From: Blasia pusilla
Taxonomy: Eukaryota
Reading direction: 5' to 3'
Length of the DNA stretch: 64,000 nt
NCBI GenBank assembly: GCA_050084515.1
Contig: CM114271.1
Span: forward strand, 43,028,001 to 43,092,000
Under the pieces are notes generated by a model, which saw only the letters and a program-made list of their open reading frames with translations, was not told the origin of the DNA and did no database searches. The translations under genes and the position numbers were made by a program. Shown in pieces: positions 1 through 39,840 of this stretch. Every line of letters starts with the position of its first letter. Positions within the stretch are counted from its first letter, which is position 1.

Positions 1-1437
1 CACCGTACTATGCGCTAGAGGTACATCAACCAAAAACCTGAGATGCATAAAGCGCCTAACACATCTCCGAACAAAGACCAAATGAGCTACAATGATGCAG
101 CACCTGACACGGCATAGTTAAGAACTCGGCGATTAAGCCCCTCTAGGCAGAATAGCCCAAAGATGGGTGACCAGTTATGCAAAACTCAAATCCCAAATCC
201 TGCAAAAATTGCCTCACGCCCAAGCTTGCTTGCTTGCTCCTTGCTCCTTACTCCTTACTCCGCCTCTCACGCCCACTCGCCCCGAACTACCACGAGTTGC
301 CTCGAAGCCTCAAAATGCTCGAGACATGCCCCTATCGCCCTGTTCGCCATGCTTCGCTATGGAGAGAGGTCCAACCAGGGCGCCCCCAACGGGATAGGCG
401 TCTCCAAAAATGAACGAGTCACCAACCAACCAGCCCCTCCGATCCGCTGTCCACCATAGCCAGACCTTGAGCTAGTCCGCGAAATTTCGATCAGAAATTA
501 CTTCACAAATACGTGACCAAAATCAAATCTGTTTCGATCAAAATTCAATTGACCACCATAGCTATCTCCCCACAAAAACTCAACTACAACCGAGCTCCGT
601 ACTCCGAGCTAAAAATCAGACAAACTTGCTGTCCATACACCTCTAGAACCGCAAATCCGACAGCGCTTCCGCCAAGTTTCATGCACGCAGAAATCCGCAA
701 CGCTCCACGCACTCGAGCAGATGGCTTCACATGAGATCACAATACAAGTAGCAATAGGAACCTCTCACCCAATCTGGATGAACTTCAACAGAGCTTCCGC
801 ACTCCAAGCTCTCCACATCAGAAAACTGTCGAACACGACCAGAATCTTCAATGCTTGATAACTTCCAACTCCCTTGACGAAATCCGGCGATCTACAACGC
901 GTTGGAAAGCTCTCAGCAAGGCGCTTCTTTCCCAGCCAACCGCACACCAGATTCACACCTCCAAAATAGGCCACAAGCCACGAACATCCACGGCTGAGTA
1001 CACAATCAGCCCTAACCAGATCCTACTGATCTACAATCGAAGCTACCATCGATCTACTCCAGTTCTTTGAGTGAAATCCGTGAAAGACCTACTATCATAA
1101 AACACGTTTACAATCACATACAATCGAGCCAAACCCACTCCACGATGGGAGAATCTAGGTCGAAGCTTGCGGGAAACACCATAGCCAAGAGCTCTACTCA
1201 CTACCAAGGCTAACTCCCAACGCAACAGGCTCAACTCACAAAGAATCGATTGTTCTTTGAGGGCAAGCCACCTTATATCCTCCAACCTAAGAGCGGGCCC
1301 CACTGGGAAAGTCACCCCAAGTGAGTAACCCCAACCCTATGTATGGAACCGCATCTCTACCAAGCCACTACGGTCCTACATAAGGAATGGCCTCTACCAG
1401 CACTATACTCTACGACATAATCCGTATGGTCATGACA
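1..1437 (-). mobile_element. 5' end (repeat B, PBS, 5' leader) of copy 2 of the DNMT-carrying Gypsy element; continues off the left edge of the window
   Basis: 1-1437 is a same-orientation homolog of 10747-12161. On the minus strand it starts TGTCATGACC at 1437; B ends GATTTCA at 1072 and is followed by CTCAAAGAACT. Confidence 0.9.
1072..1437 (-). repeat. LTR-like repeat B (about 366 bp, TG...CA)
   Basis: Near-identical reverse complement of 5767-6130 and homologous to 11794-12161; contains a TATA-like motif. Confidence 0.9.
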
Positions 1438-1690
1438 CATATTCTTCCTCGTGTACAAGCGTAAAATAGTTTGTAGGGATTTTATAGTTAGGAATTTTGG
1501 GGTCCGATGTTACGAAGAAGTGATCGCCTCGGCACTTCCATTTGTGATACCTGTCGTGAGAGAATGGAGAGTGTACATCATAATTTTGTATTGAAAAAGG
1601 AGAACTTATTAGAGAGTTCACCTTGCATCGGCCGCATCTACCGCAGCTAGAAGGCCCGCCCTTGTTCGAAGAAAGACTCTCGACACGACA
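1438..1690 (+). mobile_element. 3' part of inserted solo-LTR-like unit X
   Basis: Ends ...GACACGACA at 1690, the inverted counterpart of the TGTCGT start at 7166 (-). Starts with CATA, which matches the reverse complement of 6237-6240. Confidence 0.7.
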
Positions 1691-2380
1691 ACGCGAGTTG
1701 GCTTGCGTGCACATCGTCCACGCTTGTGGTGGACAAACTTGTTGCCTAGGGAGGTTCTACGTCGAGCATATGATGCAGTGCAGCGGGATCCTTGCCTTAC
1801 AGTGGATAGTATCTTGGATATTGGGCGACTTTCTCAAGTGGTGAGGGTTATTGATCGGTCATCCATGGCAGTGGTGAACCGTGTGGGCCAGCCTAGGATG
1901 GCACTACCCACATTTGTGAGTTTTCCCTCGTCACATGCCTACAGGGAAGGTGGTCTCGGGCTTGTATGGGATTCTCATGTGCGACTGTTGGTGGAGCCTC
2001 ACGCTGATGAGAGAGAGCGTGCGATGGGATTTGCTACTGGTGTGACAGCGGTTGCTTCCATTTCTGAGGCTTCACGACGTCATGTGTTGGGTCAAGCCAT
2101 GGACCTGAATTGTTTGACTTGGATTTTGAGTCTTGGTATGGCCGAGCAGCATCGACTTCGGACTATGTGTGTGGCTCTTCCACCCCTTGTGATGAGCTCG
2201 ATGGCTACCGGGACGGTAGAGGCATCGGCTGGGGGCGAAGAGAGTAGTATTTTGCATCCTTGGAGTAAATGGGATGTAATGGTTGGGCATGTGAAGTTGG
2301 TTGCTCATGCTGGTGGAGGAGTTATTTGCTCAGATGATGGTGTAGCTAAGGGTATACCATCTTGTGAGGGGGTTGCGTAG
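1691..2380 (+). pseudogene. C-terminal half of DNMT3-like C5 cytosine methyltransferase (motifs VIII-X) in Gypsy pol
   Basis: RVGLRAHRPRLWWTNL resembles DNMT3 AHRARYFWGNL; EPHADERERAMGF...RRHVLGQAMDL resembles motifs IX/X (ERIFGF...LLGRSW). Continues into RT. Confidence 0.8.
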
Positions 2381-2386
2381 CAGCCA

Positions 2387-3860
2387 ATGGCATCGTCCTC
2401 TCCCTCTAGTGTGCCAGTGGAGGAGACTTGGGAGCCATTACTTGGGCCCAAGCTTACGGGAGGTGAGAAACGACGCTTGATAAAATTCCTACGTGCTTAT
2501 AGGAGTTGTTTTGCCTTTAGCATGAAGGAGTTGGGTTCTCTGGTTGGACCCGGTATACGGATTGATTTGGCTAGTGATACGCCAATCTTCCGTCGTCCCT
2601 ACCGATATAGTGATATGGAGAGGGACCTGATTCAGAGTAGGACGTTGGACCTTTTGGAGGCTGGATTAGTGGAGTTCTCGCATGGAGAGTATGCATCGCC
2701 CCTTTGTCATGCTGCTAAAAGGATATGCATGGCAACTACACGGATAGGCGGATGTGTGGAGATTACCGTCCTATCAATCGGCAAACCAAGGCCGATAGGT
2801 ATGCCATGCCTACACTGAGGAGATCTTTGATGTGGTGGGACAGGCAAAGATTTTCAGTATTTTTGGATCTTTCGGGCAGATACCATCAATTGCCGATTCG
2901 GGAGAGTGACAAGGCCAAGACAGCATTTTGGGGTGTCAACTCTCATGGCAAGGATTGTTTGTACCAGTGGAAATTCTTACCCTTTGGGTTGAAGAATGCA
3001 CCTGCCGAGTTTCAGAGAGTGATGGACAGGATCCTAGGAGGGTTGGATTTTGTTCGGTGTTACATTGATGATATCTTGGTATTCACTAACACGGTGGAGG
3101 AGCATCAGATACATTTGCAGATTGTGTTTGAGCGGTTGAAAGCTCATGGTCTACGTTTGAATCCAAGAAAGTGTAAGTTCTTCCATGAGGATGTTGAGTA
3201 ATTGGGTCATTTGATCTATCCAAGTGCTTTGGGAGTTCAGCAAGCAAAGGTGGAGGCTATTGCACTTATTCCGCGTCCGGTAGATGTGAGTAGAGTTTGG
3301 GCATTCATGGGATTGGCAAACTACTATCGGAGGTATATGAAGGGATTTAGTGCTATGGCAAAGCCTTTGAACCAATTTCTGAAATCAGATCAAGAGTGGC
3401 ACTGGGAAGATGATCAAGAGAGAGCTTTTGTGGAGCTTAAGGCCCAGTTGGTGGCGGCGCCTATCTTGAGGAGACCTATCAGAGGGCGCCCATTTTAGTT
3501 ACACACTGATTGGAGTAGGTTGGGACTTGGAGCGGTGTTGACACAACATGATGATGAGCACATGGAGTTTGTGGTGGCCTATGCAAGTCGTTTGAATAAT
3601 GCAATGAGTCGCTATAGTTCATATGAGGGAGAGTGCTTGGCGAGAGTGTGGGTTGTGGCACACTTTAGGTGTTACTTGTTTGGCACACATTTTACCCTTG
3701 TTCTTGATCACCGGCCGCTCAAGTGGTTGATGGAGTCCGACAAGCTTACATGGAAGCTTGCACGGTGGGTTCTTATCTTACAGAGTATGACTTCCGGGTG
3801 GTACATAGACCGGAGTTGCCAACCTTGATCTTTGATGGGTTGAGTAGGAACCCATATACT
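2387..3860 (+). pseudogene. Ty3/Gypsy reverse transcriptase and RNase H (frameshifts and stops)
   Basis: PIFRRPYR, RMCGDYRPIN, YHQLPIRESDKAKTAF, LPFGLKNAPAEFQR, YIDD at 3061, HTDWSRLGLGAVL, YEGECLA, DHRPLKWL, DGLSR. Confidence 0.95.
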
Positions 3861-4249
3861 AGCCAAGAGGATGCAATCGGGGCTAGATGGCATGGCGAGG
3901 TTGATGAGGAGATGGTGCCACGTTGGCATACATCCGCCTTTTTATGTTGGTTAGGGGTGGATTCTAGTATGGAGGACCACATGACATCTTACTCTAGTCT
4001 GAGGGTAGATGGCCACCTTGGATCGTAAGGTTGGAGATGGAGGCAGATCATCGTGATATTCATGATGATGCATTGGTGTTGGAGTTCCTACGGACCAGTA
4101 GGGTGCCAGGCATAGTGAGTGCCAAGGAGCGAGACCGTGTTCTTCAACATGCTAAGAGGTATCGATTGGAGGCAACACATATTCTCTGTGTGTGGGAGGA
4201 TGGTAGAGTACGAGTAGTGCCGCATTTGGCTCAGAGAGAGCGCATTGTG

Positions 4250-5140
4250 TGACATGCCCATGAGGAGTTGGGACATTTTGGGGTAAAGCATACGTATAGC
4301 TTACTCCTTGGTCAGTATTGGTGGCATGGCATGCATACTCAGGTGCAGCAGTTGGTGTCACGTTATATGGTTTGTGACTGGGTGAGGGCATCATTCAATG
4401 CCCCTACACCACAGTTACACCCCTTGCCTATTATGGGGTTGGGTTACCGTTGGAGTGTGGACTTTGCGGGACCGTTACCGTTGACTGTACGACATCATGG
4501 ATATGTGTTGGTGATGGTGGAGCACTTCTCCAAGTGGATTGAGTTGGTGGGATTACCTGACAAGGCAAGTGAGGGAACGGCGTACGCGTTTCTTGATAGA
4601 GTGCTTAGTCATTTTGGTGCACCACCAAGTGAAGTCTCGACCGACAGGGTAGAGAGTTTCAGGGTGAGTTTGGTCTTGTGTGACAAGGCGTTGATTGATC
4701 ATCGGACCACGCCTCGAGATCATCCAGAGGCGATGGTTTGGCCGAGCGTGTGGTTGGGACGGTGAAGAGGGCATTGCGCAAGTATGGCCTCTGAAGGGGC
4801 ATCTTGGAGACAGGATATTCAATTGCCATGGTTAGCCATGGGGTATAGGTTCATCGCCAAGCATCCTTGGCTTCCTTCTCACCTTATTTTTCATTATACG
4901 GCCGAGATCCGGACTTGCCGCAGCAAGAATTGGGGAGTCTAGTGAGGTGGTGAACCTTGATGACCCGAGAGATGTGGATGAGGGTGTGTTCTCGCCGGGC
5001 GGAGCTCTTTCGAGAGTTATGCCAACGACCTTTGAGAATCTTGCCATTGCTCAACACAGGGATACGTTGCGGTATGCAACCATTCGTGGAGGTTATCGAC
5101 CATCGATTCGTAGGTTCCATGTGGGGACTATGTCTATTTG
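4250..5140 (+). pseudogene. DDE integrase (HHCC zinc finger and rve core), degraded
   Basis: HEELGHFG...CDW, WSVDFAGPLP, VEHFSKW, STDR, HPEA..GLAER. Confidence 0.9.
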
Positions 5141-5344
5141 TAGCGATTGCCCGACAACGTTGGATGTGACGGCAGCCGCACTATTTTACGAGTGCGTGAG
5201 GTGTTAGCTTCTGGAGTTCTCATGTTGGAGGGTCGTGATGGAGTTGTTTGGAAGGACCATGTGCGTAATTGTGCGCCATGTCATCTTCCAAATGTGGATG
5301 GTACTGTTGACCCAAGCTTAGCCATGATACGTGCTAGCTTGAGG

Positions 5345-5485
5345 TGCATGTTGTGTGGGTCTGCTGGTAACGTAGCCCGTATGTTGGTGTGTGATCGGTG
5401 TTCTAGGGGTTGGCACATGATGTGTTTGACTCCACGTTTGGATGTTGTTCCTATTGGAAGGTGGTTTTGTCCTCGATGTACTTAG
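5345..5485 (+). pseudogene. PHD finger (C4HC3) at the C-terminus of the integrase
   Basis: CMLCGSAGNVARMLVCDRCSRGWHMMCLTPRLDVVPIGRWFCPRCT followed by stop. Confidence 0.9.
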
Positions 5486-5647
5486 GAGAGGTAGATGACT
5501 TGATCTTTGCATGATATGGATTACAGATGTGCGACTAACGATGGGGCAACCTAGCACCCGTCCTTCTGATTCGTACACCCAAGAAGGTGTATAGCATGTA
5601 GTAGATGTATAGGGCTACCTGGGAGTTAGAGGGACCTAACCGCTTGT

Positions 5648-5660
5648 TAGGGGGGCGAGT
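5648..5660 (+). promoter_or_regulatory. Polypurine tract of the DNMT-Gypsy element
   Basis: TAGGGGGGCGAGT directly before TGTGGTAC at 5661. Confidence 0.75.
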
Positions 5661-6236
5661 TGTGGTACACTTGCGTTTATGGATACTCTCGTCTATGTTA
5701 TGTATATATGTGAGTATGGTATGTCAGCGATGTATGTTGTATGACGATGGGGATTCGCACGACAGCTGTCGTGACCATACGGATTATGTCGTAGAGTATA
5801 GTGCTGGTAGAGGCCATTCCTTATGTAGGACCGTAGTGGCTTGGTAGAGATGCGGTTCCATACATAGGGTTGGGGTTACTCACTTGGGGTGACTTTCCAA
5901 GAGGGCCCGCTCTTAGGTTGGAGGATATAAGGTGGCTTGCCCTCAAAGAACAAATGAGTTCTTTGAGTTGAGCCTGTTGCGTTGGGAGTTAGCCTTGGTA
6001 GTGAGTAGAGCTCTTGGCTATGGTGTTTCCCGCAAGCTTCGACCTATATTCTCCCATCGTGGAGTGGGTTTGGCTCGATTGTATGTGATTGTAAACGTGT
6101 TTTATGATAGTAGGTCTTTTACGGATTTCAATTGTGGTACACTTGCGTTTGTGGATACTCTCGTCTATGTTATGTATGTATGTGAGTATGGTATGTCAGC
6201 GATGTATGTTGTATGACGATGGGGATTCGCACGACA
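5661..6236 (+). repeat. 3' terminal A-B-A split repeat (A1 5661-5764, B 5767-6130, A2 6133-6236)
   Basis: A1 and A2 are 104-bp direct repeats with 2 mismatches. Junctions are CA-GC-TG and CA-AT-TG; B matches the 5' repeats. Confidence 0.92.
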
Positions 6237-7166
6237 TATGTGACAATAGGAAGAATCACGGGAGTTGGAGATTGCATGACATGGTTCATGAACGCCTCCC
6301 CAAAGTGATAAACTAAATAGCGAGTGAACCAGTGCCTATCTACAAAGAGTACCTTGACATGGTAAGGATTGAGGAAAGGAAAGTCGGGCACAGCTCGTGC
6401 TCCACCCCTATCCATGCTTGACACACATTCTCTACTCTCCTCAAGAATGGGTTTTGGCGGAGTTATTCTCCCAAGAGGGATAATCCACTCTCATTGGGGA
6501 AGTAACAAGCCAAAACATCCGCTATTTTAGTATGACTAAACTCCTATACGGTGACAAACCTCTCATCCCCACACACACACACCACACTCTAGAAATCTCT
6601 CGAAGAATAGACCATGGTCAAGTTACACTCCCAAGAGGGGTGATCCACTCTCATTGGAAGAGCAAGCAATCCCAAAGCCATACACTCAAGAGAGACACGA
6701 GAGACTCAAGATGTGGAATAGAAGGTGATGAACCCTTGAAGGTCCCTCCTCTTTATATACTCACAAGGGATCCACAAGAGTACGAAATAGAGCTTATCTT
6801 ATCTTGTGCCACATGGCTTCCTCTCAAGGCTTAGCCAATCACATTTTGACACAAGTAGATTTCCTCTTATCTCTTCCAAAATAGCCTCTTTTACCCACTT
6901 GATATTTTCCTAACTACCCCAACTAACCTAGCCACCAACCAAGACTACTTTTGCTTTTCATTAAAGCAACTACTTTACTTTTATAAAGTCATTTTTTATT
7001 TATTACCTCCTTTTCCTAAAGTTGGGCCCGCATAAAAGAGGCACCATAAAGAGGTTTAAACATAAGAATCTCCTTTTTCTAAGCCAATTTACTTAATACT
7101 AATGAAACTCTATCTAACACTTAATGACGAAGGAGTTTACACACTGGTTGATTTTACTATACGACA
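6237..7166 (-). mobile_element. 5' part of inserted solo-LTR-like unit X
   Basis: Starts TGTCGTATAG at 7166 (-), has TATATAAAG near 6755, non-coding. Joins 1438-1690 through the shared CATA. Confidence 0.7.
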
Positions 7167-7690
7167 GCGCTGCATCCAACAACACCGCTGGTCCAATCCA
7201 AGATCGCACCTCATGAACAATTGCCATCATCCGGGTCCGAGTGTGACCCAACAATGGAACATTCTCCAGAATGTAAGCTAGAGCATGTGCTTGATGAACC
7301 TGAAGATGTCGTAACACCCGTAACATCTCCCAAAACAATCGAGACCTAGGGTCGTGTAATCCCTCACCATGACCAGGATGTATATGACCCTCACATGGCC
7401 ATCCAACAATCACCAAATCCACAAGACCAACACTCTCAAGGTCCTGCGCCCCCAACAATACAATGTGTGACGGAAAAGCACGTTGGTACCCACGAATAGG
7501 TGATGGCGGCAACAACTGATGATATCTCCGCATCAACTGACCAATATGTCGAGATGAGACTCCGGGCCGTCTCATCTCACTCCATATACACGTATCTCTG
7601 CACAAGAATACCGGCCTGCAACACTACAGCCAAACCAGTGCTAATCCCACCAAAGAGATCTAACACACAAATGCCCTCCGGCGGATACTG
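7167..7690 (-). pseudogene. N-terminal half of DNMT3-like cytosine methyltransferase (motifs I, IV, VI)
   Basis: CVLDLFGGISTGLAVVLQAGILVQRYVYME (motif I/II), VDLVIVGWPCEG (catalytic PC), GLHDPRSRLFWEMLRVL, YILENV, PAVLLDAA. One stop near 7577 and a frameshift. Confidence 0.9.
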
Positions 7691-8104
7691 CCACATAATG
7701 GGTGTAGTATCTAAAGGGGATAACCCAACTGGACCAGAAGTAGAAGTCCGCCGTGGGACCTCCTCTTCCTCGTGAGGTATAACAGCCTCACACCAAGCCT
7801 CCTCCACTAGGCGATCAGCCTCCTGCCGTAAACTCCAAAGTGGCACATCCAATGATGAGGATGCCACTACTGCAAAACTAGGGACCTCCTCTACCTCCTC
7901 ATGCACAGGAGAATCCATAACAGAAACATTACCCTCCAAAAAGTCTCCTAGCCAAGTGACTACTCCACTAAAACCAGCTACAGATGCTAACACTGTTGGG
8001 GAAGACCCTCCTGGTTGAGCCCCATAAATAAATCTCACAGGAACTTGGCTCATACGTCCATCCCCGGACTGCCAACCAGGTCTATAAGACGCTCTCTCAG
8101 TCCA

Positions 8105-8533
8105 CTAATCCATCTGAAAACCCATCGGGTACAATACTGCTCCTCCAACTAGTACATCATACGACTCGGCTGATGTGACTACCGGTGATACTCCCAACCG
8201 GGAGCTATCAGTCGCATGATCTGGTCTCAACTGTACAGAAAACTTCTCCCGTGTCATGAATTCAGACCTATCATTGGCTCCTCCAAGTGATGTTTGAATC
8301 TGGAATGGGCAAGGCTCAAGCTCTGACCTCCGAATACCCAAACCAATACATGCCGCCTTTCCCAACATCAAAGGCTGGGCACCTGAGTCTAACAAGACTC
8401 TATCTGGTCTATACACCTGTCCTGTAGGACTCACCAATCGGAATATCCCACTCCGGTTGTCCAACATACATACACCACGTGTAAGCCTCTCAAGATGAAT
8501 GGCTGGCCGGGCTGCTAATGCATCCATCTTCAC
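8105..8533 (-). pseudogene. Retroviral-type aspartic protease
   Basis: RVLLDSGAQPLML active site; YDVLVGGAVL. Confidence 0.85.
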
Positions 8534-10330
8534 CGCTGCTGCTTGCCAAGTAGCACTGCTACACCTGACATAGAGGGCCGCTCCACTGCAACACCCTCAT
8601 CCACCTCAACACGTGTAGCAGTAATACCCCCACATTCACACAACGTGGCTGCTAGCTGAAATACAGGAGCTAAGTCAACTCCTAAAGCCATTAGTTCCGT
8701 GGCCGAAAACAATGGGGATCCCAACACTGAAGTTGCCATCCGCAATACTGCATTGGATGTTGCATCTATGTCTACTACACGCGATGTAGATGCCTCAATC
8801 CCCACTATCGACTCAATAGGCTGCGTAGGAACCATGGATGGAGTCCTAAGCACCTCAGACAACAAGAATGACTGGGGAAGCCTAGCCTGCCTCCCAACCT
8901 CACCCCTCTGTGGGTCCAACTCCATAGTAGCATCATGTGGCTCTGACGCTTGAGTGGCTCCTCTCGTAACAGCAACTGATGCCTCAACCTGTGCTACACT
9001 CGCCATATAGAAGAGATCATCCCCTTCATAAGAGGTGGAAGCCCCTGCTCCCGAACCTGATCTATGCTGGATACCAGCCATAGTAGCCAACTTTTGCTCC
9101 AACTGCTCAATCCTGGCAACCATAGCTGACTCTGTCGTAGTGGTAGGGGTGGCCACCGTAGGCTCCCCAACCACTAGTCCACCTCTACCACCTCTATCAC
9201 CTTGGCCTCTCGGAGCTACTCCACCACGGCCGCGGCTTGATCTCAACTCTGGATGAAGATCAAAGCAACGCTCTCGAGGATGACCTGGTCTCCTGCAATG
9301 ATCACACTGAGTTGGGGCCGATTGAGGCCCATCCTCCAAAGTCCGTCTCCCATCCTCTTGGGGACAAAACTTCCTAACATGATCACCTCCACATGTCCAA
9401 CATGACATGTGGAGGTGATCATGTGAGGATGATTCACCCACATTCTCACCCACATAAGAGTAGCATCATGTACCCTTCGGCGCAACTCTCTGTCCAAGAT
9501 CCCATACCAAAATCGATCGCTCGAGCCTCGCCACACAGGTAATGAAATCAGCGTGCCGATACGAGTGTATGCCACACGAAGACTCTCACCTGTCTTTTGC
9601 TCAAATTCTTGAAGACTCCTCAACTTCTCTGTCTTCACTCCTGATAGTTCTTCTTCAACCTCTTGAAGAACTCTGCAACCGGGCTAAACGATGGTGGGCC
9701 ACTAGTACCTTCTCTAGTACCCCCACTGGTACCTCCATGGGTACCTCCACTGGTACCCCCACTCCGGCTCGTACTCGTACCACTCAACGTCGGGTTGGCT
9801 GGCATAGTAGGAGCACTACTACCAATACCACCATGGGTGATAGACACATAGCCCAGAGACCAATATTGTCTCCACGCCTCAATCTCAACAACATGGTCCT
9901 TCCTAAACTCATGGTAATCATCCATGGGTGGTCCCTCCAAGTGCTGAAACAACCCCTTCCAAGCCAAGAAGGATGTAAACAACGTGGCGTTCCGCAACAT
10001 CTGCATATCACACCACGTATCAAACTCTTGCATGAAGTCCTCCAACTCAATGGTGCCCACTGCACCCGAGTATCATCGTGGGCCCTTCATGGCCCCATAT
10101 ATCCCGTCCATGTCCCAAATCAATGGAGCTGCAACACTCGATAACAACGTAGAAGACTCGGTGTTTGGAACACCCTCGTCCTCCTCTTCATCAACCGTCG
10201 GAAGTGGAAAAGGAAGCCAATACCTAAATCCACTCCGTGTGAAACCACCACTATCCGCACCACGGTCCCCAACCAGACCACCAGACAGCTCCGTGATGAC
10301 CAAGGCCGATGCCGCAACACCACCAAATTA
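8530..10330 (-). pseudogene. gag with two zinc knuckles (degraded)
   Basis: LEDFMQEFDTWC..., LRSLQEFEQKTGESLRVAYTRI (retrotrans_gag-like QxxGES), CWTCGGDHVRKFC, CDHCRRPGHPRERC. Confidence 0.8.
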
Positions 10331-13041
10331 CCACCACTAAGTAACCAAGTGACGTCGATGTCGTTGTACTATTCTAGCTCTACTAGCTATGGGTGTAGGC
10401 AACCTAACCTGTCATCACCACAAGAAGCCTCCCACGGTATACTGGTCATCACTCCAGCCTTACTACCGGTAGCACACAGGAATAACACTACTCAGGAAAT
10501 CAACGTCAACCGTAACAATGGGCGCGCAAGCAAGAAGCAACGATGGAGGGGATCCAAACACAAGAAGTCCAACGACAATCCTCCAATCGCAAATGGAAAT
10601 CAAGGTAACACAATCCACCAAACGTGGCGCCCCCTAATCCACAAAACCCACCACATAATTCTTACGCAATAGCTACTCCGCCGCGGGTCGATGACGTGCT
10701 AGTCGGACTCGCAGCACCTGAAAATATCACCTGGATGGAGAGGCTACACCGTACCATGCGCTAGAGGTCCATCAACCAAAAACCTGAGATGCATAAAGCG
10801 CCTAACACCTCTCCAAACAACACCAAATGAGCTACACTAGTGTGTACACTGGCATAGTTAAGAACTTAGCAGTTAAGCGTCTTCCAAGCAGAATAGCCCA
10901 AAGATGGGTGACCAATTATGCAACACTCAAATCACAAATCCTGCAAAAACTGCCTCACGCCCAAGCAAGCATGCTTGCTTGCTTGCTCCTTGCTCCTTAC
11001 TCCCCCTCTCACGCCCACTCGCCCTGAGCTACCACGAGTTGCCTCGAAGCCTCAAAACGCCGAGACATGCCACGCTTTTCCACGCTTCGCTATGGAGAGA
11101 GGCCCAACCAGGGCGCCCCCAATGGGATAGGTGTCTCCAACAATGAACGAGTCACCAACCAACCAGGCCCTTCGATCCGCTGTCCACCATAGCTAGTCCG
11201 CAAAATTTTGATCAGCAATTACTCCACAAATCCTCAACCAAAATTGAATCTTCTTCAACCAGAATTCAATTGACCACCATAGCTATCTCTCCACAAAAAA
11301 TCAGCTACAACTGAGCTCTGTACTCCGAGCTAAAAATCAGACAAACTTGCTGTCCATACACCTCAAGAATCGCAAATCCGACAGCGCTTCCGCCCAGTTT
11401 CATGCACGCAGAAATCCGCAACGCTCCACACACTCAAGCAAATAGCTTCACATGAGATCACAATACAAGTAGCAATAGGAACCTCTCACCCGATCTGGAT
11501 GAACTTCAACAGAGCTTCCGCACTCCAAGCTCTCCACATCAGAAAACCATCGAACACGAACTAGAATCTTCAATCCTTGATAACTTCCAACTCCCTTGAC
11601 AAAATCTGCCGATCTAAAGCACGTTGGAAAGCTCTCAGCAAGGCGCTTCTTTCCCAACCAACCATGCACCAGATTCACACCTCCAACATAGGCCACAAGC
11701 CACAAAAATCCACGGTTGAGTACACAATCAGCCTTAACCAAATCCTACTGATCCACAATCGAAGCTATCATCGATCTACTTCAGTTCTTTGAGTGAAATC
11801 CGTGAAAGACCTACTATCATAAAACACATATAAAATCACATACAATCGAGCCAAACCCACTCCACGATGGGAGAATCTAGGTCGAAGCTTGCGGGAAACA
11901 CCATAGCCAAGAGCTCTACTGACTACCAAGGCTAACTCCCAACGCAACAGGCTCAACTCAAAGAACTGACTATTCTTTGGGTGCACTCCACACTATATCC
12001 TCCAACCTAAGAGCGGGCCCTATTGGGAAAGTCACCCCCAACTGAGTAACCCCCAACCCTATGTATGAAACCGCATCTCTACCTAGCCACTACGATCCTA
12101 CATAAGGTTTGGCCTCTACTAGCACACTATATTCTACGACATAATCCGTATGGTCATGACAGCCTTCACCCTCCTTGAGACTCTCGCATATTTCCATAAC
12201 CACAGATTGATGGGTGGGTGCATGGGGATCTCCATACCCATGATATTTGGTTGTATTTCCCAATTGGGATTTTCAATCGCCAAGTAGTTCCTCTTTCGAC
12301 TCTCGACACACTTTAGTGTTTGTCATGATCAGTTGGTTCCATTTGATACCCACATTTGTACATAGCTGCAGAGTTAACAAAACATCATTTGATACGCTTG
12401 AATGCTTCAACCATATTAGAAGATCATCATCCATTCACGAAGTTCATTCCCACAAGATCCAAGGAAGATAACATAGTGGTTTTGTTGGATTCCCAATCCT
12501 AGACGATGGATATTCATGTTATTGAGGCTTTAGTTATTTGAGATTAATTACCACCTCAAGCAGATGTAGAGGGTCCTACATTAGAGGTTGTAACCAATTT
12601 GTCAATGGATGTGCCAAGCGAGTCCTTCACACACACTAGATTATGAGAGTGTGGAGATATTAAGTGCATTGGGACTACCACCAATTGTTCCAGTGGGAGA
12701 CCCAGCCTCCACTCAAGTTTGCAAATTTAAAGAAAGTTTAGTGGAAAATGGTGGAGGATTTGAATCATTTTTTTCACACTTCGATGAGAAAGAGGGTGTG
12801 GGATGGCAGGAAGTGTAACATCCCCTTGCATTCATATGATCCTTGGATGAGACGTGTTTGGAAGGACACAAGATCTCGCTGCATGAACATTGGAAGGGAG
12901 TGAGGAAGGAAGATTCAACTGCAAAGAAGATTCATGCAGATGTTGTTTGAACATTGGGGAATGAATGTGGAGTGGAATACATTGTTGTTGGGACCTAGAG
13001 TAGTCACTCAAGCTACCACATCAAGGGCTTTGGAAAAAAAT

Positions 13042-14960: not shown

Positions 14961-16648
14961 GACAACAGCACAAGAAATATTAGGGGCAATAAATTCCAAG
15001 AGGTTGTAGGATGGATCCTCAACAATTAACTTTGCAAGCGTGTGACATCGATTTCAGCCCTTCAATGAGTAGCTTGTATTGCATTTGCAGGCAAAGAGTG
15101 ATAGTCCAACAAGACATTAGTGGCTATTTCCTTCAGCGTTTTGAGTTAACTGTAGGACACGGTAGAGCACATATCCTGAAAATGCTACACCATCAGATTT
15201 GGAGTCTTCAAGATTGTAAATAGCTTTCTCCTTGCCTTATTTTCCAATTCCTTGGCACCATCAGTGTCATTTCAGATCTCCCATTGGCAATCGCTCATGT
15301 CTCCTTTCACAAGTTTCTCACTCATCGATTTAGGTTTACAATCTAGCAATATGAAACTATCACTTACGGGATTTCTCCGTACCCAAAAGCATTTTGAGAA
15401 AATTCTGGCTCGGACTTTTTTTCCGCTTGGGCAAGCATTCTCGCACCAAAGCAAATGGAGACAAGCTGATATTACGGGGATTGACATTCCACGACTATCA
15501 TGGTGTGTTTCTGCAAAAGAGAAAATTAGGGCAGAAGCTTCTTCTTGACATTGATGCATGGATAGACTTAACAAGGTCTGGTGTCACCCATCAGCTCGAT
15601 GACTCAGCCAACTATGCCGAGATCTACAACTACCATTCCCCCAACTACATTTAGGTTTCAATCTTTTCACTCATTATTTTTTAGGTGGGCGTACCCATTA
15701 GACTCTCATCATTAATTAGTGCTACATGCATCTTCCGTTTGTAGCTTCTACCCTAAATTCACTTTACTACGATCGAATAAAAGCCCTACCAATAAACTTA
15801 CTTATGCGCCTACGGTAGTCAATTTTTATTTTATTCACTATATCCACCCACACTTAAATTTCTTCCTTCGGGATGTGGTATTGATTGCTTCTTATGCAGC
15901 AATCTACCAAAAATTGCAAATAAATGAGACCTTACCTTTAACCATCTCCTACCTTTTTCATCTCACTTCTCCTTTAGACTAAGCAACCAAATACATGTGT
16001 TAATTAAGATCTAACCTTCACTCCTTTTTTTCATTACTGCAATACTACATAAGTCTAGACTTTTCCCCAACCTAATCTAGACTATTCTAGGCCGCATACT
16101 TGTTATGCTAGTAGAGTGAAGTCACCACATCAAACTCAACTTTCTTTACAAGCGTTCTATAATGAAGTACTACAAGTAGTCGATGACATATCGACAATGT
16201 TCTTACAAAAAGCTTACGCCACCACATGATGCCATGCACCAAGTATTTGAAGAAGCCTGTGCTTTCCATGCGGTCGTGGATGCCCTAAGTTAGCTATGAC
16301 TATCTACAGCCTCCGGTGGACCTAACGAAACAAGAGTCTCGCACGAAGGCACCGGTAGCGCTTCTTTCTCCTGTTTGTGGGTCGTCGAGGCTGAAGGTGA
16401 GGTCCTCCGAAGGAGAGGACCGATTGCAATGGGCGTACGAATCAATTGGGAGTAGAGGCAGGTGACGGTATCAAATCGAAGGCATAGCGGGGGCTGGGTT
16501 GTAGATATTTGAGTTGGTCGGTGGTGTTTCACGAGGGAAATTTGCCGACTCGAAATTGCAGAGTAGGAGCAAGGAGTTGCGATTGCTATTTTGCTTAAAC
16601 GTTCGTTGGAGCGGAGGAACGAGAAGTGAAGTTGGAAGAGAACTAGGA

Positions 16649-26041
<9,393 letters not shown>

Positions 26042-29906: not shown

Positions 29907-31271
29907 TTTGTGTGTATGAGAGATCTATTTCTATTTCACAAAATTGATACAACAAACGATGCAACTATGGTTGAGTGAGTCATCCCTCCATGGGTTTCAA
30001 TTTTCGTAGAGGAGGTACCCTCTCTTGTCTCCTCCTTGTCATCCGCAAATGGTTGTGTCCATAACACATTGTGCAGGTTATAGTAAAGCCTTATGATCTT
30101 TATTTTTGCCAAGAATTTGGTTGAAAACGTACTCATGGTAGACATCCATTAACGATCCTTCCAAATTCTTGAACATATAGCTCTATGTTGTGAACGGGTT
30201 GAATTCTCGGGAGTTCCTTGTACTCTTAGAGTTGCACCAACTTCAAAACTTTGCAATTAAGTTGTGCATCTGGATAGTCCCTAACAACCCCGCAACTCTC
30301 AAAAACCTATGAGGTCATCTACATTAGTTGTATATCTTGTATGCCAATGGATCAAAGCCACTCAATGTCATAGGTGACGAAGCCCTCCTCCAAAATCTCT
30401 CCTCCATCTAAAGATGACACATACGGAGGTCAAGACCATTGAGAAGACGACAAGAGACAGTTATGAGTGGCAATCAAACATAATATAGAGCAAAGGCCAA
30501 AAAATTGGAGTCACTGATTGTAAACAAGGTCGAAATCATTGGCAATATACTCAAGGTGAACTCGTTGGCGGTTAGCTTGTAAATTAGACATTACATGTCT
30601 GTTATAATAGCACCATGGAAAAGACGACAAGAGACGATTAGTGAAAAATAGAATATGGTTGACGGGATAGAATGATGGTCGCAATGTGACTGATGGTGAG
30701 GTTGACAAACGGTTCCCAATCGGATCAACGTGAGTGACACAAGGTCGTTCAAGCCAATAGCAAAGTAGGTGTAGGAGTGCAAGGTTAGACATGCAGTTCA
30801 TCACTCTATTTAGGGGGGATGGAGCCAAACATACTTAGTCACGGCATTAGGCTGACCGTTCACACAAGCTTAGGGTGGCGATTAAGAAAGGATGCAAACT
30901 TGAGAGTTAGCAAGGACATATGTGTATTGGACAAGAAACTCCATTAGAGTAAGGGCGGTTTGTGTAGAATGGTAAGAGATGCAACCTTGCTTTATCACAC
31001 CTCACATATATTGAGGAATATATTAGAGGTGGCAAAGGGTATTGAGCCCAACATGGTGGAGAAGAGCATCATGACCTTGAGCTATGCCAGAGAGGGGTGG
31101 AGAGAAGTCAACACACCATATGTGCAACAACCTAGGATATAGGGTGGTCATTGAGATCCCATATACGTAATTGAGACCTATACCCTTGTATATATGCAGG
31201 TCACCAATAGCTAGGATTGATTTTTTTTACATGTGGTGGGGCCTAATGTTAGAGAGATTGTGCATGCCAAG

Positions 31272-33019: not shown

Positions 33020-35856
33020 TGAAGCATTCCCAAATAAGGCCCAGGAAGTCGGCCTCGTGCCCAAAAAATTGTACGGGGAGATAGTTGGAAGCGAGGGTGT
33101 CTCTATCACTTTTATGTATCTGAAATCAAGGCTCCAATGCATGTGGCTAAGATCATTTACAAACATAGATTACATGTTGACAAGGATGGGATGCCATGCC
33201 ACGGCAATAACGACCCAACAAGTTTGGACACTCCTAACATGTATGCTCCTAGGATCTCAAAGGAGTTGAGATGTTACATAAAGAAGAGGCTTCGACTCAG
33301 GATAAAGCCGCACCAGATTATATGCGAGCAAGGGATGATGCTTAAAATGAGATCTGACACCTCTCCTGACTTTGAGGGGAGTATGACAAGGGATGATTTC
33401 CTGCAAATGCATGATATTACAAATGCAAAGAAGTCCTTGAATATGGAGACTTTCCAGTTTTGTATAGATGAAAATGAATCTTTGAGTACTTATGTAAACC
33501 TCTATCCAGAGAAGGTCTTCTTTTATGAGCCTTATTTTGATGATACAAGACCTTTCATATTGGGATTCCAAAGCGCTTGGCAATTGCAATTGATGGTGAA
33601 ATACGGACACAACAATGTTCTTAGCATGGATAGTACGTTTGGCACCAATCGAAGCAAGGTTCGTTACTCTTTATTCATATGTACACTAAATAAAACTTTG
33701 CAAAGTTTAATTTCATGTCTACTTGTAACAATCCTGATATGTTGGAGTTTTGTGTGTAGTTTCCTTTGTATACCATCTTAGTGTTTGATGAGCAACACAC
33801 TGGAATACCTGTAGCATGGATTTAGACCAGTAGCTCCAAGGAGGTGCACTTGGTGAAATGGCTACATGCAGTGGTGACCAAGTGTTGAAGACAACAACCC
33901 TCTTGGGAGCCGAATGCAATCATAGTAGACGATGCCAACGCCGAGCAAAATGCATTGAGGTATATTAAGGATATGCACTGAAGTATTCTCTTACTACAGG
34001 GTCATTCCACGGCCGTGTTTTTGTTTTTCAATATGATTTGTGATTCTGTTACATAGGCATATTGGTCACATGCATTGAAGGTATTGCGGGTATTTTTTTT
34101 CAATCATGCTGTAACTCACCAATAACTTTACTTGCACGATAATATTTTCCAACTCAAGTATCATATTGTGTCTCTGGCATGAACGCCATGACTGGTTGAA
34201 GCACTTGAAACGAAAGGTTCAATGTGCAATCATGAGAGCTCACATGTCACGACATCTAGGAGAAATTATGTACGTAAATCAGTGTGGCACATACACTGGA
34301 GGTGTGATCTTGGATGATGCAAAGATCTTGCTACAAAAATTCTATTCAGACTTCAAAGAGGAAGTTGAATTCATCAACTATATAAGGACTTATTGGGAGC
34401 CGAAATTAGGTGGATGTCTTTGTTTCTCCGATATATTTGCAATAGTTACATAATCGGTGTTTATGAGTGATATTTTCTTTCGTTGGTTCTCTAGAATATT
34501 AATATTGCAGGTGTCTGGATTAACTATAAATCCATGTATTTTTGTTTGAGCACAGGTAAGTGGGTGAAAGCGGCAAGGGACTACCCTCATGCAAACCAAG
34601 ACATGAACACAGCAATTGAAGCATATCATGGAAGCATGAAAGCAGTTCTTGCTGATGACAACAAGAGTATTGCTCGAAGAAGAGGAGACTACCTAGTTTG
34701 GAAGCTTAGCAGTTTTGTAGAGGCTTGGTATTTTCACATTCACTTGCTGAAAAAAAAAGGTTTTGCACAAAACGCAATAGAAGAGCAATATGTGAATAAT
34801 GCAGTATTGAAAGGAAGAGAAATCCCAGCGGGCGATGTGCAGCTTAGTGAATCAAGGGGGCAAGTCAGGATGGCACGTGTCAGGAGCCAAACAATACCAA
34901 CAAAATGGTATGAAGTATACAACTATGACACCGAATGGGGTCATTGTGAGTGTCCTTGGTCCCTAAAGGGGAACATCTGCAAGCACATGGTAAGAAATAC
35001 ATATGTTTTCCTTTTTGGGTATCACAAATCGTCACATTGTCCATCTTCTAATGCAAGTATCATGATTTCTATGATGAGATCTCTCTCCAGATTGCAACTT
35101 TGTTACGAGAGGATTACAACAAAAAGGACCTTGTGAATATACTTGGAAGAAGATTGGGCACAAAATGGGGAGGAATTGCACAACTAAAAATGAAAATGAC
35201 GAATTCAAGATCTATTGAAAGTCATATCTCCGGCGACCTCCTCGATCTCAACAAAATACTAGGTTTCCTTTGAAATACTAATACAAAATCTTGTAGTGCA
35301 AGTAGATTGAGATGATTTGGATATTATTTATGTTATGTTTTTCAGGTTTCAGCTAGAATCTGATTATTTGAATCTGAAGTGTCTTTGAGAATGCATTCCA
35401 TACACAGAGACAAGTATAAGCCCTTCGCTTGAGACAACACCAGTAGTCGAAGAATTTAATTTATCAGGTTCAACCCAAGAAATGGAGGCTACTATAGACA
35501 AAGTGTACTCTGAGTTGCAGAATCATTGTCATGGTAGTGACTTGCTTTTAAGAATGGCGTCTAAAATTTTGAGGGAAATAAATGGTCGGATTGAAATAAC
35601 AAAAGTTGTTGTTAGAAACGGCTTGACACAGCAGACATACAATGATGGTTTCCAAAACAATAATTCTATCAAACGAGTGAAGTCGAACATTGAGCGCTGG
35701 TCAGAAAAAGCAAAGAGACAGAGTACACAACATGGATTAGGATATAATACAGTCTTGTGTCCATCCCAAGATGGAAGCTCAAGTAGGTTACCATCCTTTC
35801 CAAAGCCAAGACCAAGAAAGAAGAGATTAGGCCTGCAAGATGAGCTAGACTCATAG
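33020..35856 (+). pseudogene. Mutator/MULE transposase with SWIM zinc finger, spliced, premature stop at 33823
   Basis: FILGFQSAWQ...SMDSTFGTN, FPLYTILVFDE, IIVDD, LCLWH (CxxH), NTAIEAYH, CECPWSLKGNICKH. The 5' and 3' limits are approximate. Confidence 0.85.
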
Positions 35857-38910: not shown

Positions 38911-39599
38911 ACGAATGCAGCAAGAACCTCAATAGTGATTCTCACTTCATTCTTACGATACAGTAGAAACCCAAGGGAAAAAAGGGGCATAGGAGCCCAT
39001 CAGAAAGCCTTCTACGAGAGCCACAACCTTCAAAATCGGCCACTGGTGGCCAATCTCTGAATGACATGGTCACATGCAACACCAAAACCCATCTAATACA
39101 CCTTCACGATACATTCTGAAGTTATCAATGGAAATAAAGAGATTTCAAGAAGCAAGTAACTACAGAGACCAACTTACCCACCATAATCAAGCACCTGAGG
39201 CTGAATCACTCCGCATGACTGAGTAGCAAAAGACACCGAATACACTTATACAGGTAAAGCGACAACGAAAAAGTGACTCCCCGTCTATTTAAGAAAGAAC
39301 CGCAATCAATTGGACACTAGTGTGATCTGGCCCAATTGTAGAAAACGTAAGGCATTCCAGCAATGCAACTCTACGGATTTAAAAAAAAGCAGAGAACTCT
39401 GAGGCACATCTCCCTTGATTCTCTGCCTATGTCGTAGTATAATCCTACAGAACAAACGCGAAAATCAATAGACGATTCACCCATCCAATCAACCCTTCAT
39501 ACGCTCCGGAGATGAATGTGTTCATAAACACGTTCATCTCCAAGGTTCGGAGAGAAAACTAATACGTTACGAACCGAAAGCACTCTGGCTGCAACGATC

Positions 39600-39840
39600 A
39601 ATGCGGAGGGCAAATTTCTGCAACGGAGGGCAAATCTCTCCAACGGAGGGAAAATTTCTCCAACGGAGAGCAAATTTCTGCAACAGAGGGGAAATCTCTG
39701 CAACGGAGGGCAAAATTCTGCAACGGAGGGCAAATCTCTGCAAACGGAGGGCAAAATTCTGCAACGGACGGGAAATCTCTGTAACGGAGGGCAAATTTCT
39801 GCAACGGATGGCATGGCAAATCTCTGCAACGGAGGGCAAA
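39600..39840. repeat. 20-bp minisatellite (CTGCAACGGAGGGCAAATYT), about 12 units
   Basis: Directly visible tandem units; they account for the repetitive ORFs in the track. Confidence 0.92.

Follow-up and report, generated by a model that had tools for sequence, protein, structure and literature searches.

Published transposon-borne methyltransferases (DNMTs) come from dinoflagellates and one charophyte alga, organisms that are difficult to manipulate. The charophyte Klebsormidium nitens carries KnitGypsy-Dnmt3, a Gypsy element with a DNMT3-related domain (de Mendoza et al. 2018, PMC5890265). The text of that paper equates the A-coding-B-A-B repeat layout of the element with that of DIRS elements. 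It also reports that the domain produced no methylation when expressed in yeast, a result that the authors call inconclusive and the sole published test of such a Gypsy-borne domain. De novo CG methylation was shown in yeast for SymbioDIRS-Dnmt3, and the same text judges this acquisition to be independent (PMC5890265). Chromoviruses, mentioned in the introduction of 10.64898/2026.05.21.726589, are Gypsy elements that carry a chromodomain on the integrase. The literature searched names no land-plant case of an element with a DNMT3-related domain, and supplements may list copies. The text seen of two later papers mentions just "streptophytes" for such elements. Named descriptions of this kind are so far confined to an alga.

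The stretch analysed here (the window, 64,000 nucleotides) contains a broken counterpart. The original prediction suggested a land-plant Gypsy case, and the neighbouring host gene, which matches Marchantia and Riccia best, points to a liverwort host. We consider the whole account likely, namely that the window holds a wrecked liverwort Ty3/Gypsy element with a DNMT3-like domain, disrupted by nested insertions and most likely an inversion. The prediction had placed the DNMT between the protease (PR) and the reverse transcriptase (RT) of a Gypsy polyprotein, with motifs I, IV and VI on the minus strand and motifs VIII, IX and X on the plus strand. Strand translations recover every motif, located by coordinate, where it was expected (Table 1). 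The domain order PF00078, PF17917/PF17919, PF17921 and PF00665, together with a DSG motif in the protease, is of the Ty3/Gypsy type in the window and recurs in 20 metagenome loci. The protease at 8105-8596 (-) has no Pfam match at E 0.1, and a CCHC knuckle of Gag lies at 9364-9402 (-). The copy was thought to be a pseudogene, and stops and frameshifts do appear in its translations. In the N-terminal DNMT half of the family copy Y, a stop interrupts the frame (YVYME*, within 7562-7594) and a frameshift follows directly; a further in-frame stop separates protease and DNMT. The window copy itself does nothing.

Table 1. Features of the element copies Y and W and of insert E in the window.
Feature	Position	Strand	Evidence or remark
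Copy W, 5' leader, runs off left window edge	1-1071	-	second family copy
Repeat A1' of copy W, LTR-like, TGTCAT...TTTCA, ~365 nt	1072-1437	-	97.0%, inverted, to 5767-6130
4-bp target-site duplication of copy W, CATA (reverse complement of TATG)	1438-1441	.	partner TATG 6237-6240
Insert E, left arm, TGTCGT start on - strand	1442-1690	-	...ACGACA at 1685-1690 (+)
Target-site duplication of insert E, ACGC	1691-1694	.	partner GCGC 7167-7170
DNMT C-terminal half, motifs VIII-X, then linker; single open frame	1694-2377	+	70-77% identity to P0028, P0013, P0011
DNMT motif VIII RVGLRAHRPRLWWTNL	1694-1741	+	strand translation
DNMT motif IX ERERAMGFATGVT	2009-2047	+	strand translation
DNMT motif X RRHVLGQAMDLNCLTW	2075-2122	+	strand translation
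In-frame stop DNMT/RT, context TAG CAG CCA	2378-2386	+	stop at same place in 46/46 loci
Reverse transcriptase, one frameshift	2381-3201	+	PF00078 E 5.1e-29 on 2719-3201; YIDDILV at 3061-3081
RNase H, Ty3/Gypsy type, carries in-frame stop	3202-3828	+	PF17917 E 5.8e-28, PF17919 E 1.4e-17
Integrase, zinc-binding part and DDE core	3998-4765	+	PF17921 E 6.7e-10; PF00665 E 4.5e-9 on 4253-4765
PHD finger, C-terminal end of integrase frame	5144-5485	+	PF00628 E 7.6e-11
Repeat B1, ends ...CGCACGACA, then 2-nt spacer GC	5660-5764	+	98.1% to 6132-6236
Repeat A2, LTR-like, 3' end	5767-6131	+	97.0% to 1072-1437 (inverted), 91.6% to 11794-12163
Repeat B2, ...ACGACA end = true 3' terminus of element	6132-6236	+	direct reading and self-alignment
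4-bp target-site duplication of copy W, TATG	6237-6240	.	direct reading
Insert E, right arm, ends ...ACGACA	6241-7166	+	direct reading
Target-site duplication of insert E, GCGC	7167-7170	.	direct reading
DNMT N-terminal half of copy Y, motifs I-VI	7168-8104	-	PF00145 E 4.9e-7 on 7114-7623
LLDAA (end of DNMT N half)	7168-7182	-	strand translation
DNMT motif VI ILENVPLLG	7246-7272	-	strand translation
DNMT motif IV GWPCEG	7387-7404	-	strand translation
DNMT motif I DLFGGISTG	7634-7660	-	strand translation
Aspartic protease, LLDSGAQ at 8375-8395	8105-8596	-	77-84% identity to matching part of P0014, P0013, P0009
Gag, ATG at 10109-10111, stop at codon 13, frameshifts	8530-10111	-	58-64% identity to Marchantia ORF1 proteins
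5' leader of copy Y	10112-11795	-	last ~230 nt ~70% identical to leaders of 24 loci
Repeat A1 of copy Y, 5' terminus TGTCATGACC at 12161	11796-12161	-	self-alignment and direct reading

Both halves in the window are one cytosine-methyltransferase gene. They were predicted to rejoin in frame at LLDAA, and the rejoined LLDAA followed by RVGL agrees with the unbroken Marchantia protein P0013 (...AVLLDAARVGSRAHRARLWWTNL). Rejoining also restores the usual, unpermuted motif order I-IV-VI-VIII-IX-X. In RNA reads of the same species, 7170/7167 are fused directly with 1692/1695 of the opposite strand, and in the mapping three letters at the joint fit either side. The joint between 1692 and 7170 is crossed by 27 reads in X22 and 17 in X23, and that between 1695 and 7167 by nine reads in each of the two as well as by one DNA contig (X1). 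The species thus contains, and transcribes, an unbroken form of the DNMT. Identity to the window is no more than 95-99% for most of the RNA reads (2373 of 2618 in X22, 2383 of 2731 in X23), which hence derive from other copies.

The assignment to PF00145 holds for the 169-residue piece at 7114-7623 (-), which scores 29.9 bits, above the curated Pfam threshold of 22. The intact relatives P0013 and P0009 reach 35.6 and 35.1 bits (E ~1e-8), and in these as well the match covers motifs IV-VI only. Motif IV reads PCE in the window copy and PCQ in the family, and its catalytic Cys is invariant, along with the Glu of ENV, over 36 diverse family members. Likeness to DNMT3 was also part of the original prediction, and the nearest solved structures are indeed DNMT3A/3B/3C by sequence and by predicted fold, judged against solved animal and plant structures as references. 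Sequence searches with the Marchantia protein give E-values of 1.7e-8 for DNMT3A/B/C, 1e-3 for HaeIII and 2.6e-3 for DRM. The family profile matches DNMT3A (3.9e-11), 3C (2.8e-8) and 3B (5.5e-8), and more weakly DRM (6.9e-4), HaeIII (3.7e-3), DNMT2 (7.6e-3) and HhaI (0.011), with DNMT1 absent among the structures listed up to E 1. The AlphaFold model of the domain has a pLDDT of 91.2 and a pTM of 0.90, and all Foldseek matches listed for it are DNMT3A/B/C (best E 6.1e-20, TM 0.84 on the target). By sequence and modelled fold, the domain appears nearer to DNMT3 than to DNMT1, DNMT2, DRM or bacterial enzymes.

The domain was expected to occur in other copies of the element, and it is present in many, both as proteins and in metagenome loci. 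The piece at 7114-7623 (-) has 31 homologous proteins (E 1.8e-54 to 2.2e-21), 16 of them from Marchantia polymorpha and one from Sphagnum. Among the 79 metagenome loci taken, 25 are at least 9 kb long, and PR, DNMT and RT are collinear in 20 of these 25. An intact counterpart is provided by P0013 of M. polymorpha, whose gag-PR-DNMT frame of 1278 residues is unbroken and whose cluster at 90% holds 18 sequences. Elements of the family are built in the order A1, leader (1.2-1.7 kb), gag-PR-DNMT, in-frame stop, RT-RNaseH-integrase-PHD, B1, 2-nt spacer, A2 and B2. At the DNMT/RT boundary, 46 of 46 loci keep this stop, as TAG CAA CCC (29), TAA CAA CCC (14) or other forms (3). The dN/dS test proposed for the DNMT gives medians of 0.25 (39 pairs) and 0.27 (58 pairs) for the window against loci, in pairs that all include the window copy and whose members are both decayed. 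These values are close to those of RT (0.20) and integrase (0.22), with protease at 0.16 and the PHD finger at 0.41.

Repeats A and B are each present in 24 metagenome loci. The layout A-body-B-NN-A-B is found in the window and likewise in two of six loci examined (L050 and L033), where the elements are flanked by the 4-bp duplications AAGG and TCTC. TG...CA ends and 4-bp duplications are present, but the right end is B2 rather than the LTR-like A2. The termini of the family are TGTC(A/G)T...ACGACA, and insertion produces 4-bp target duplications. At the left edge of the window, positions 1-1437 match 10747-12161 in direct orientation (89.35% identity over 1446). Insert E has arms (1442-1690 and 6241-7166) that match neither A, B nor any of the 79 loci, and with no further copy of the left arm in the window or in these loci. 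Its right arm has the deepest DNA coverage in the stretch, and RNA reads continue past 7166 into other sequence.

The insertions of E and of W follow from the junction sequences, which show both when read directly. The 1.18-kb repeat E inserted within the DNMT gene of copy Y, leaving the duplication GCGC, and the family copy W then landed in E in reverse orientation, leaving TATG. As a third step, we infer recombination of the inverted copies W and Y between the C-terminal DNMT half and B2, which would have inverted the intervening segment. Recombination between inverted copies is the most likely cause of the flipped 3' half. The outcome would be the C-terminal DNMT half of Y and a chimeric 3' half on the plus strand, while gag, PR and the N-terminal DNMT half stay on the minus strand. 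A full-length copy is predicted to the left of position 1, beyond the window. Repeat A2 is nearer to A1' of W than to A1 of Y. Y and W diverge by about 10% in repeat A, which counts against homologous recombination. Among the contig pieces listed (69-123 nt), none is seen to bridge 1437/1438, 1690/1691, 6236/6237 or 7166/7167, so the inversion lacks confirmation from independent DNA.

Other origins of this structure carry less weight. The genome could in reality contain plain nesting (E in Y, W in E), with an assembler that switched between the inverted copies in their common 3' half. The observed structure is precisely what an inverted-repeat switch would give, and the junctions are bridged by no independent contig among those listed. 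However, the difference of about 8-10% between Y and W in the comparable repeat is sufficient for modern assemblers to separate the copies, and we regard such an error as improbable. The four junctions are identical in both arrangements and do not discriminate between them. A split made by the integrase is considerably less probable still, whether through autointegration with inversion by the element's own cDNA ends, or through a tail-to-head pair of chromosomal ends that was cut and inserted nearby. Both DNMT breaks adjoin ...ACGACA ends with a 4-bp duplication, but these ends belong to E and not to the element, and the arms of E match neither A, B nor any of the loci. The element's own ends lie 0.25 and 0.93 kb off with the separate duplication TATG, and two ordinary insertions and one inversion explain all four junctions. 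The DNMT could also be a host DNMT3 fragment captured just once, or consist of two unrelated pseudogene pieces that lie side by side by chance, though nothing was found in favour of this. This is excluded by the 20 of 25 collinear loci and by the Marchantia and Sphagnum proteins. RNA reads join the halves exactly and the dN/dS of the DNMT resembles that of RT, leaving such an origin a vanishingly small probability.

For the family, we suggest a mode of action that builds on the conserved stop. The DNMT would be the tail of a Gag-PR-DNMT product made in Gag amounts, and RT and integrase would arise only upon read-through of the stop. The DNMT would be packed in the particle and methylate freshly made cDNA or the insertion-site DNA, and the PHD finger of the integrase would read a histone mark and so steer insertion. 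The original prediction likewise suggested that the enzyme could act on the cDNA or circle of the element, or on its target site. We propose this mode tentatively, with confidence somewhat short of an even balance. Alternatively, the family DNMT might not methylate DNA and might act on the RNA or primer of the element, or have no role other than binding DNA or chromatin. Its place in the same product as Gag, an RNA binder, and the inactivity of KnitGypsy-Dnmt3 in yeast, as reported in the text of PMC5890265, would fit such a role. The invariance of the motif IV Cys and of the ENV Glu speaks against it, as do the closest matches by fold and sequence, which are DNA enzymes (DNMT3) far ahead of the tRNA enzyme DNMT2, and we consider a role away from DNA methylation unlikely. 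Returning to a DNA-methylating DNMT, a doubtful but broader scenario would be that PHD-integrase Gypsy elements with a DNMT3-like writer form one ancient lineage across the green plants, from chlorophytes to liverworts and mosses. Its bryophyte branch would have moved the DNMT from pol into the Gag-protease frame before a programmed read-through stop, hence with DNMT at capsid level, packed and able to pre-methylate cDNA. If true, the delivery of already methylated cDNA would be a strategy of self-silencing or of disguise.

The conservation of the DNMT/RT stop in all loci, the dN/dS of the DNMT and an alternative RNase H-DNMT-integrase layout are new in this analysis. The conserved stop, which leaves the DNMT in the Gag frame, and the integrase PHD finger lead to concrete hypotheses on the timing of the enzyme and on the landing site. 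For the model plant Marchantia polymorpha, genome editing is available and methylomes have been published. Its better-preserved relatives of the element would make the purpose of transposon-borne DNMTs testable genetically.

Compared with described systems, the liverwort element would be of the KnitGypsy-Dnmt3 type by its domain set and repeat layout. Each of the two is a Gypsy-type element whose polyprotein includes a DNMT3-related domain, unrearranged and free of introns, and each has the A-coding-B-A-B layout (text and Fig. 4c legend of PMC5890265). Purifying selection is found in both, with Ka/Ks < 0.2 reported there and 0.25-0.27 here against decayed copies. The present host is a land plant, as its neighbouring gene suggests. 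Its element encodes the DNMT in one frame with gag and protease, ahead of the conserved stop, and has a PHD finger at the end of the integrase; the text of PMC5890265 leaves the domain order of KnitGypsy-Dnmt3 unstated. No Klebsormidium protein is among the homologues matched in sequence searches, which is weak evidence of absence, and the kinship thus rests on common architecture and not on alignment. Gypsy polyproteins of the order RT-RNase H-DNMT-integrase-PHD were found among metagenome proteins and in the green algae Chromochloris and Haematococcus. They share 34-44% identity with the liverwort family in the DNMT, 45-57% in RT, RNase H and integrase and ~51% in the PHD finger, but place the DNMT between RNase H and integrase rather than between PR and RT. 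In a FastTree phylogeny of the DNMT domain, a single branch with support 99 divides the two layouts. The catalytic domains of animal DNMT3A/3B/3C are the best sequence and fold matches, and motifs I, IV, VI, VIII and IX-X align. Identity to these is only 20-24%, and the element domain is without PWWP and ADD, has an interval between motifs VIII and IX that is ~30 residues longer, and carries PCQ in motif IV across the family where the animal enzymes have PCN. SymbioDIRS-Dnmt3 of Symbiodinium shares a retrotransposon-borne DNMT3-type domain and A/B split repeats, but is a dinoflagellate DIRS element with a tyrosine recombinase and without DDE integrase, according to the text of PMC5890265. Like chromoviruses, the liverwort family fuses a chromatin-reader module to the C-terminus of the integrase, with a PHD finger here in place of the chromodomain there.

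The window carries a DNMT3-like methyltransferase domain whose two halves lie on opposite strands. Translation and coordinates confirmed its motifs where the original prediction had placed them on the (-) and (+) strands. With Pfam, piece 7114-7623 (-) alone matches PF00145 (E 4.9e-7, 29.9 bits, cut-off 22). Taken separately, the DNMT's N and C pieces had no Pfam match at E 0.1, nor did the protease and gag pieces of the window. The Pfam match in intact relatives of the DNMT is confined to motifs IV-VI. As to the kind of METHYLTRANSFERASE, the intact Marchantia protein P0013 matched DNMT3A/3B/3C among solved structures (E 1.7e-8 to 3e-7), with an alignment spanning motif I to motif VIII, followed by HaeIII (1e-3), tobacco DRM (2.6e-3) and DNMT2 (0.02-0.09). 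A 12-member family profile gave DNMT3A at 3.9e-11, 3C at 2.8e-8 and 3B at 5.5e-8, with weaker matches to DRM (6.9e-4), HaeIII (3.7e-3), DNMT2 (7.6e-3) and HhaI (0.011), and DNMT1 was absent from the profile's matches to solved structures up to E 1. The AlphaFold model of the related domain-only protein P0002 (36-sequence alignment) reached a pLDDT of 91.2 and a pTM of 0.90. All Foldseek matches of this model listed against the PDB were DNMT3A, 3B or 3C, the best among those listed being 6w89_A (E 6.1e-20, TM 0.84 on target, 23% identity). In 36 diverse family members, neither the catalytic Cys nor the Glu of ENV varies. Matches in the ESM Atlas were generic methylase clusters only, one of them mostly Streptophyta.

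Features of the element, its junctions and the neighbouring host gene, in window coordinates
Feature	Position	Strand	Basis or remark
gag, ATG	10109-10111	-	translation
gag CCHC knuckle	9364-9402	-	coordinate search
aspartic protease, LLDSGAQ	8375-8395	-	coordinate search
DNMT motif I, DLFGGISTG	7634-7660	-	translation and coordinate search
DNMT motif IV, GWPCEG	7387-7404	-	translation and coordinate search
DNMT motif VI, ILENVPLLG	7246-7272	-	translation and coordinate search
DNMT N half, LLDAA	7168-7182	-	translation and coordinate search
DNMT C half, RVGLRAHRPRLWWTNL	1694-1741	+	translation and coordinate search
DNMT C half, ERERAMGFATGVT	2009-2047	+	translation and coordinate search
DNMT C half, RRHVLGQAMDLNCLTW	2075-2122	+	translation and coordinate search
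4-bp duplication at DNMT breaks	GCGC 7167-7170; ACGC 1691-1694		junctions read directly
TATG duplication	1438-1441 (reverse complement), 6237-6240		junctions read directly
B1	5660-5764	+	3' end of element; then GC spacer
A2	5767-6131	+	3' end of element
B2	6132-6236	+	3' end of element
DDX23/PRP28 DEAD-box helicase host gene	16505-24000	+	protein matches

The surrounding element encodes a reverse transcriptase (PF00078, E 5.1e-29), a Gypsy-type RNase H (PF17917, E 5.8e-28), an integrase (PF17921 and PF00665) and a C-terminal PHD finger (PF00628, E 7.6e-11). A single copy of the DNMT element was found in the window. This copy is dead: the pseudogene reading was borne out by several in-frame stops and frameshifts. 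Weak similarity to the element's RT (29-43%) at 50725-51276 (+) and to its gag (33%) at 30111-30293 (-) comes from separate, unrelated LTR-type elements. The claim of a land-plant host agrees with the neighbouring DDX23/PRP28 gene, which matches liverwort proteins of Marchantia and Riccia. Its RS-rich first exon spans 16649-17440, and a helicase exon lies near 21750-21960. The variable N-terminal part, encoded at 16649-17440, matches six proteins, all from Marchantia or Riccia, with identities of 55% for Marchantia polymorpha, 56% for Riccia sorocarpa and 49% for Riccia fluitans. These identities point to a liverwort host distinct from all three species. Elsewhere in the window, a SWIM-type zinc finger (CECPW...CKH) in the open frames at 33038-35136 (+) suggests a MULE/FAR1-like transposase, and tandem coding-like units (GKFLQRRANFCN... 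repeated) are seen in three frames at 39472-40188.

The DNMT domain belongs to the family's standard make-up. The DNMT piece matches 31 proteins: 16 from Marchantia polymorpha, one from Sphagnum troendelagicum, the remaining 14 being unnamed. Scanned metagenome contigs yielded 79 loci, and protease, unbroken DNMT and RT are collinear in 20 of the 25 loci of at least 9 kb, which establishes the domain as a regular component of the family rather than a one-off capture. Four of the other long loci are cut or internally deleted and one is unrelated. Close copies are mostly decayed. Proteins P0011 (1248 aa) and P0013 (1278 aa) have unbroken gag-protease-DNMT frames, and one metagenome locus, L027, is nearly whole, with three frames in phase. 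The related proteins P0003 and P0009 also have RT and RNase H. Searched with a profile, 1.84 billion representatives yielded 4639 matches at E <= 1e-3 and 413 at E <= 1e-30. In many metagenome copies Arg has given way to Trp, Cys or Gln (e.g. RWPCQG, CAHRP). Dead copies were probably methylated in their hosts, since the Arg changes fit C-to-T decay at methylated CpG.

In 46 of 46 loci, one in-frame stop occupies a constant position between DNMT and RT, and six predicted proteins also terminate there. Its context is TAG CAA CCC in 29 of these loci, TAA CAA CCC in 14 and different in three; the window has TAG CAG CCA. This context resembles the tobamovirus read-through signal UAG-CAR-YYA, and a comparable role here is putative. 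The median dN/dS between the window and the loci was 0.25 for DNMT-C (39 pairs) and 0.27 for DNMT-M (58 pairs), and 0.20 for RT, 0.22 for integrase, 0.16 for protease and 0.41 for PHD, all ratios being biased upwards because the window copy is in every pair and decay affects both members. The DNMT values of 0.25-0.27 indicate purifying selection.

Unbroken DNMT is present and transcribed in the same species. We aligned RNA runs X22 and X23, which carry the same species label, and DNA runs X1 and X7 to window positions 1-12400. RNA read directions are opposite over the two DNMT halves, as expected of sense transcripts from unbroken copies. Most RNA reads are only 95-99% like the window (2373 of 2618 in X22, 2383 of 2731 in X23) and therefore derive from other copies. 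The two halves belong together as predicted: reads on opposite window strands join 7170 to 1692 (27 in X22, 17 in X23) and 7167 to 1695 (nine in each run, plus one X1 DNA contig). Loose ends preceding 1692 read ...GGATGCAG in 15 reads of X22 and four contigs of X7. Over the integrase region, a 1004-nt jump at 4015-5020 with CC..TA ends that are not intron-like occurs in nine and 10 RNA reads, and an internally deleted family derivative seems to be transcribed. RNA reads also join the B end (6236) directly to an A start (12161) on opposite window strands (22 in X22, 33 in X23); these joints may be B1-A2 junctions of other copies or tail-to-head forms, either circular or tandem.

The split of the domain reflects nested insertions and, most likely, a later recombination. 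Both DNMT break points adjoin ...ACGACA ends. The arms at 1442-1690 and 6241-7166 have no match in the element family and together make up E, a unit of 1.18 kb whose ends are TGTCGT...ACGACA. On their inner sides the arms meet an A repeat at its start (1437) and B2 at its end (6236), each time with the duplication TATG. These junctions show that E inserted into the DNMT of the (-) strand copy Y and that another copy, W, inserted into E in opposite orientation. The A2 repeat is 97.0% identical to W's A1' yet only 91.6% to Y's A1; the (+) half therefore owes its 3' end to W and its DNMT start to Y. A single recombination between the inverted copies W and Y could account for all four junctions, and predicts a full chimeric copy continuing past the left window edge. 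The 8-10% divergence between the copies speaks somewhat against this recombination, and no independent contig was shown to bridge the junctions. An assembly switch between the inverted copies, instead of a true inversion, is a less likely alternative.

Several simpler schemes were discarded. A simple inversion broken inside the 3' LTR is at odds with A being complete on both sides. Taking 1-1437 for this element's own 3' LTR failed on the missing polypurine or B context before it and on the TATG duplication, and 5767-7166 as a single 1.4-kb LTR failed on a match to A limited to the first 365 nt. Autointegration was dropped since the arms at the DNMT breaks are unlike the element family. Within the 1-12400 stretch, DNA depth peaks over unit E, which shows no visible coding capacity. 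It is transcribed, with 111 and 218 RNA reads continuing beyond 7166 into a single further sequence, TTCACCCCC..., and many RNA molecules starting near 6894-6917. E and the DNMT element have identical end letters and both make 4-bp duplications; E may be non-autonomous and depend on the element's integrase.

Repeat A is LTR-like (TGTC...TTTCA, ~365 nt) and is present again at each copy's 5' end. The order A-body-B-NN-A-B recurs in metagenome loci L050 and L033 (two of six loci examined), where 4-bp duplications, AAGG and TCTC, bound the element from A1 start to B2 end. A and B were each found in 24 loci. A primer-binding site was sought after A1 and none was recognisable. In 13 loci, the 3' untranslated stretch with B (window 5486-5766) retains 80-85% DNA identity to the window over ~285 nt. 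The 5' leader end is only ~70% identical over 140-240 nt, and the better conservation of the 3' stretch hints at a cis-acting role.

The family encodes a complete and conserved DNMT3-like domain that is under purifying selection, shares a frame with Gag and protease, and is transcribed. The enzyme would be made together with Gag, packed into particles and then methylate new cDNA or the insertion site, and the PHD finger might guide integration. The 2018 authors propose cDNA methylation for DIRS elements and report the Klebsormidium Gypsy DNMT domain as inactive in yeast, a result they call inconclusive (PMC5890265).

Of the 232 proteins retrieved that match the DNMT, 53 have a protease-DNMT(-RT...) layout, 107 a (RT-)RNase H-DNMT-integrase(-PHD) layout, 71 the DNMT alone, and one is odd. 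Named carriers of the RNase H-DNMT-integrase layout are Haematococcus and Chromochloris, the latter presumably behind the label 'Chrzof1'. P0206, a 1974-aa RT-RNase H-DNMT-integrase-PHD polyprotein named at NCBI as a bacterial MAG (Minisyncoccia), is most likely from a eukaryotic contig wrongly binned. In an unrooted FastTree of the DNMT domain (141 rows, leaving out 36 rows without neighbouring domains and DNMT matches <270 aa), one branch with support 99 splits the two layouts. Klebsormidium relatives were absent from the protein search matches, which is weak evidence either way. The literature text searched, supplements aside, names no land-plant case of a Gypsy-DNMT3 element; the available text of PMC5890265 makes no mention of Marchantia, and that of PMC12344493 and the 2026 preprint gives 'streptophytes' only. 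In repeat layout, the window family equals KnitGypsy-Dnmt3 of Klebsormidium as far as the latter is described, a layout 'the same as that of a DIRS retrotransposon' (de Mendoza et al. 2018, PMC5890265). The window element is a real member of the Gypsy-DNMT3 elements, ordinary in kind but newly placed; what makes it interesting is the family as such, and that a model liverwort has it.
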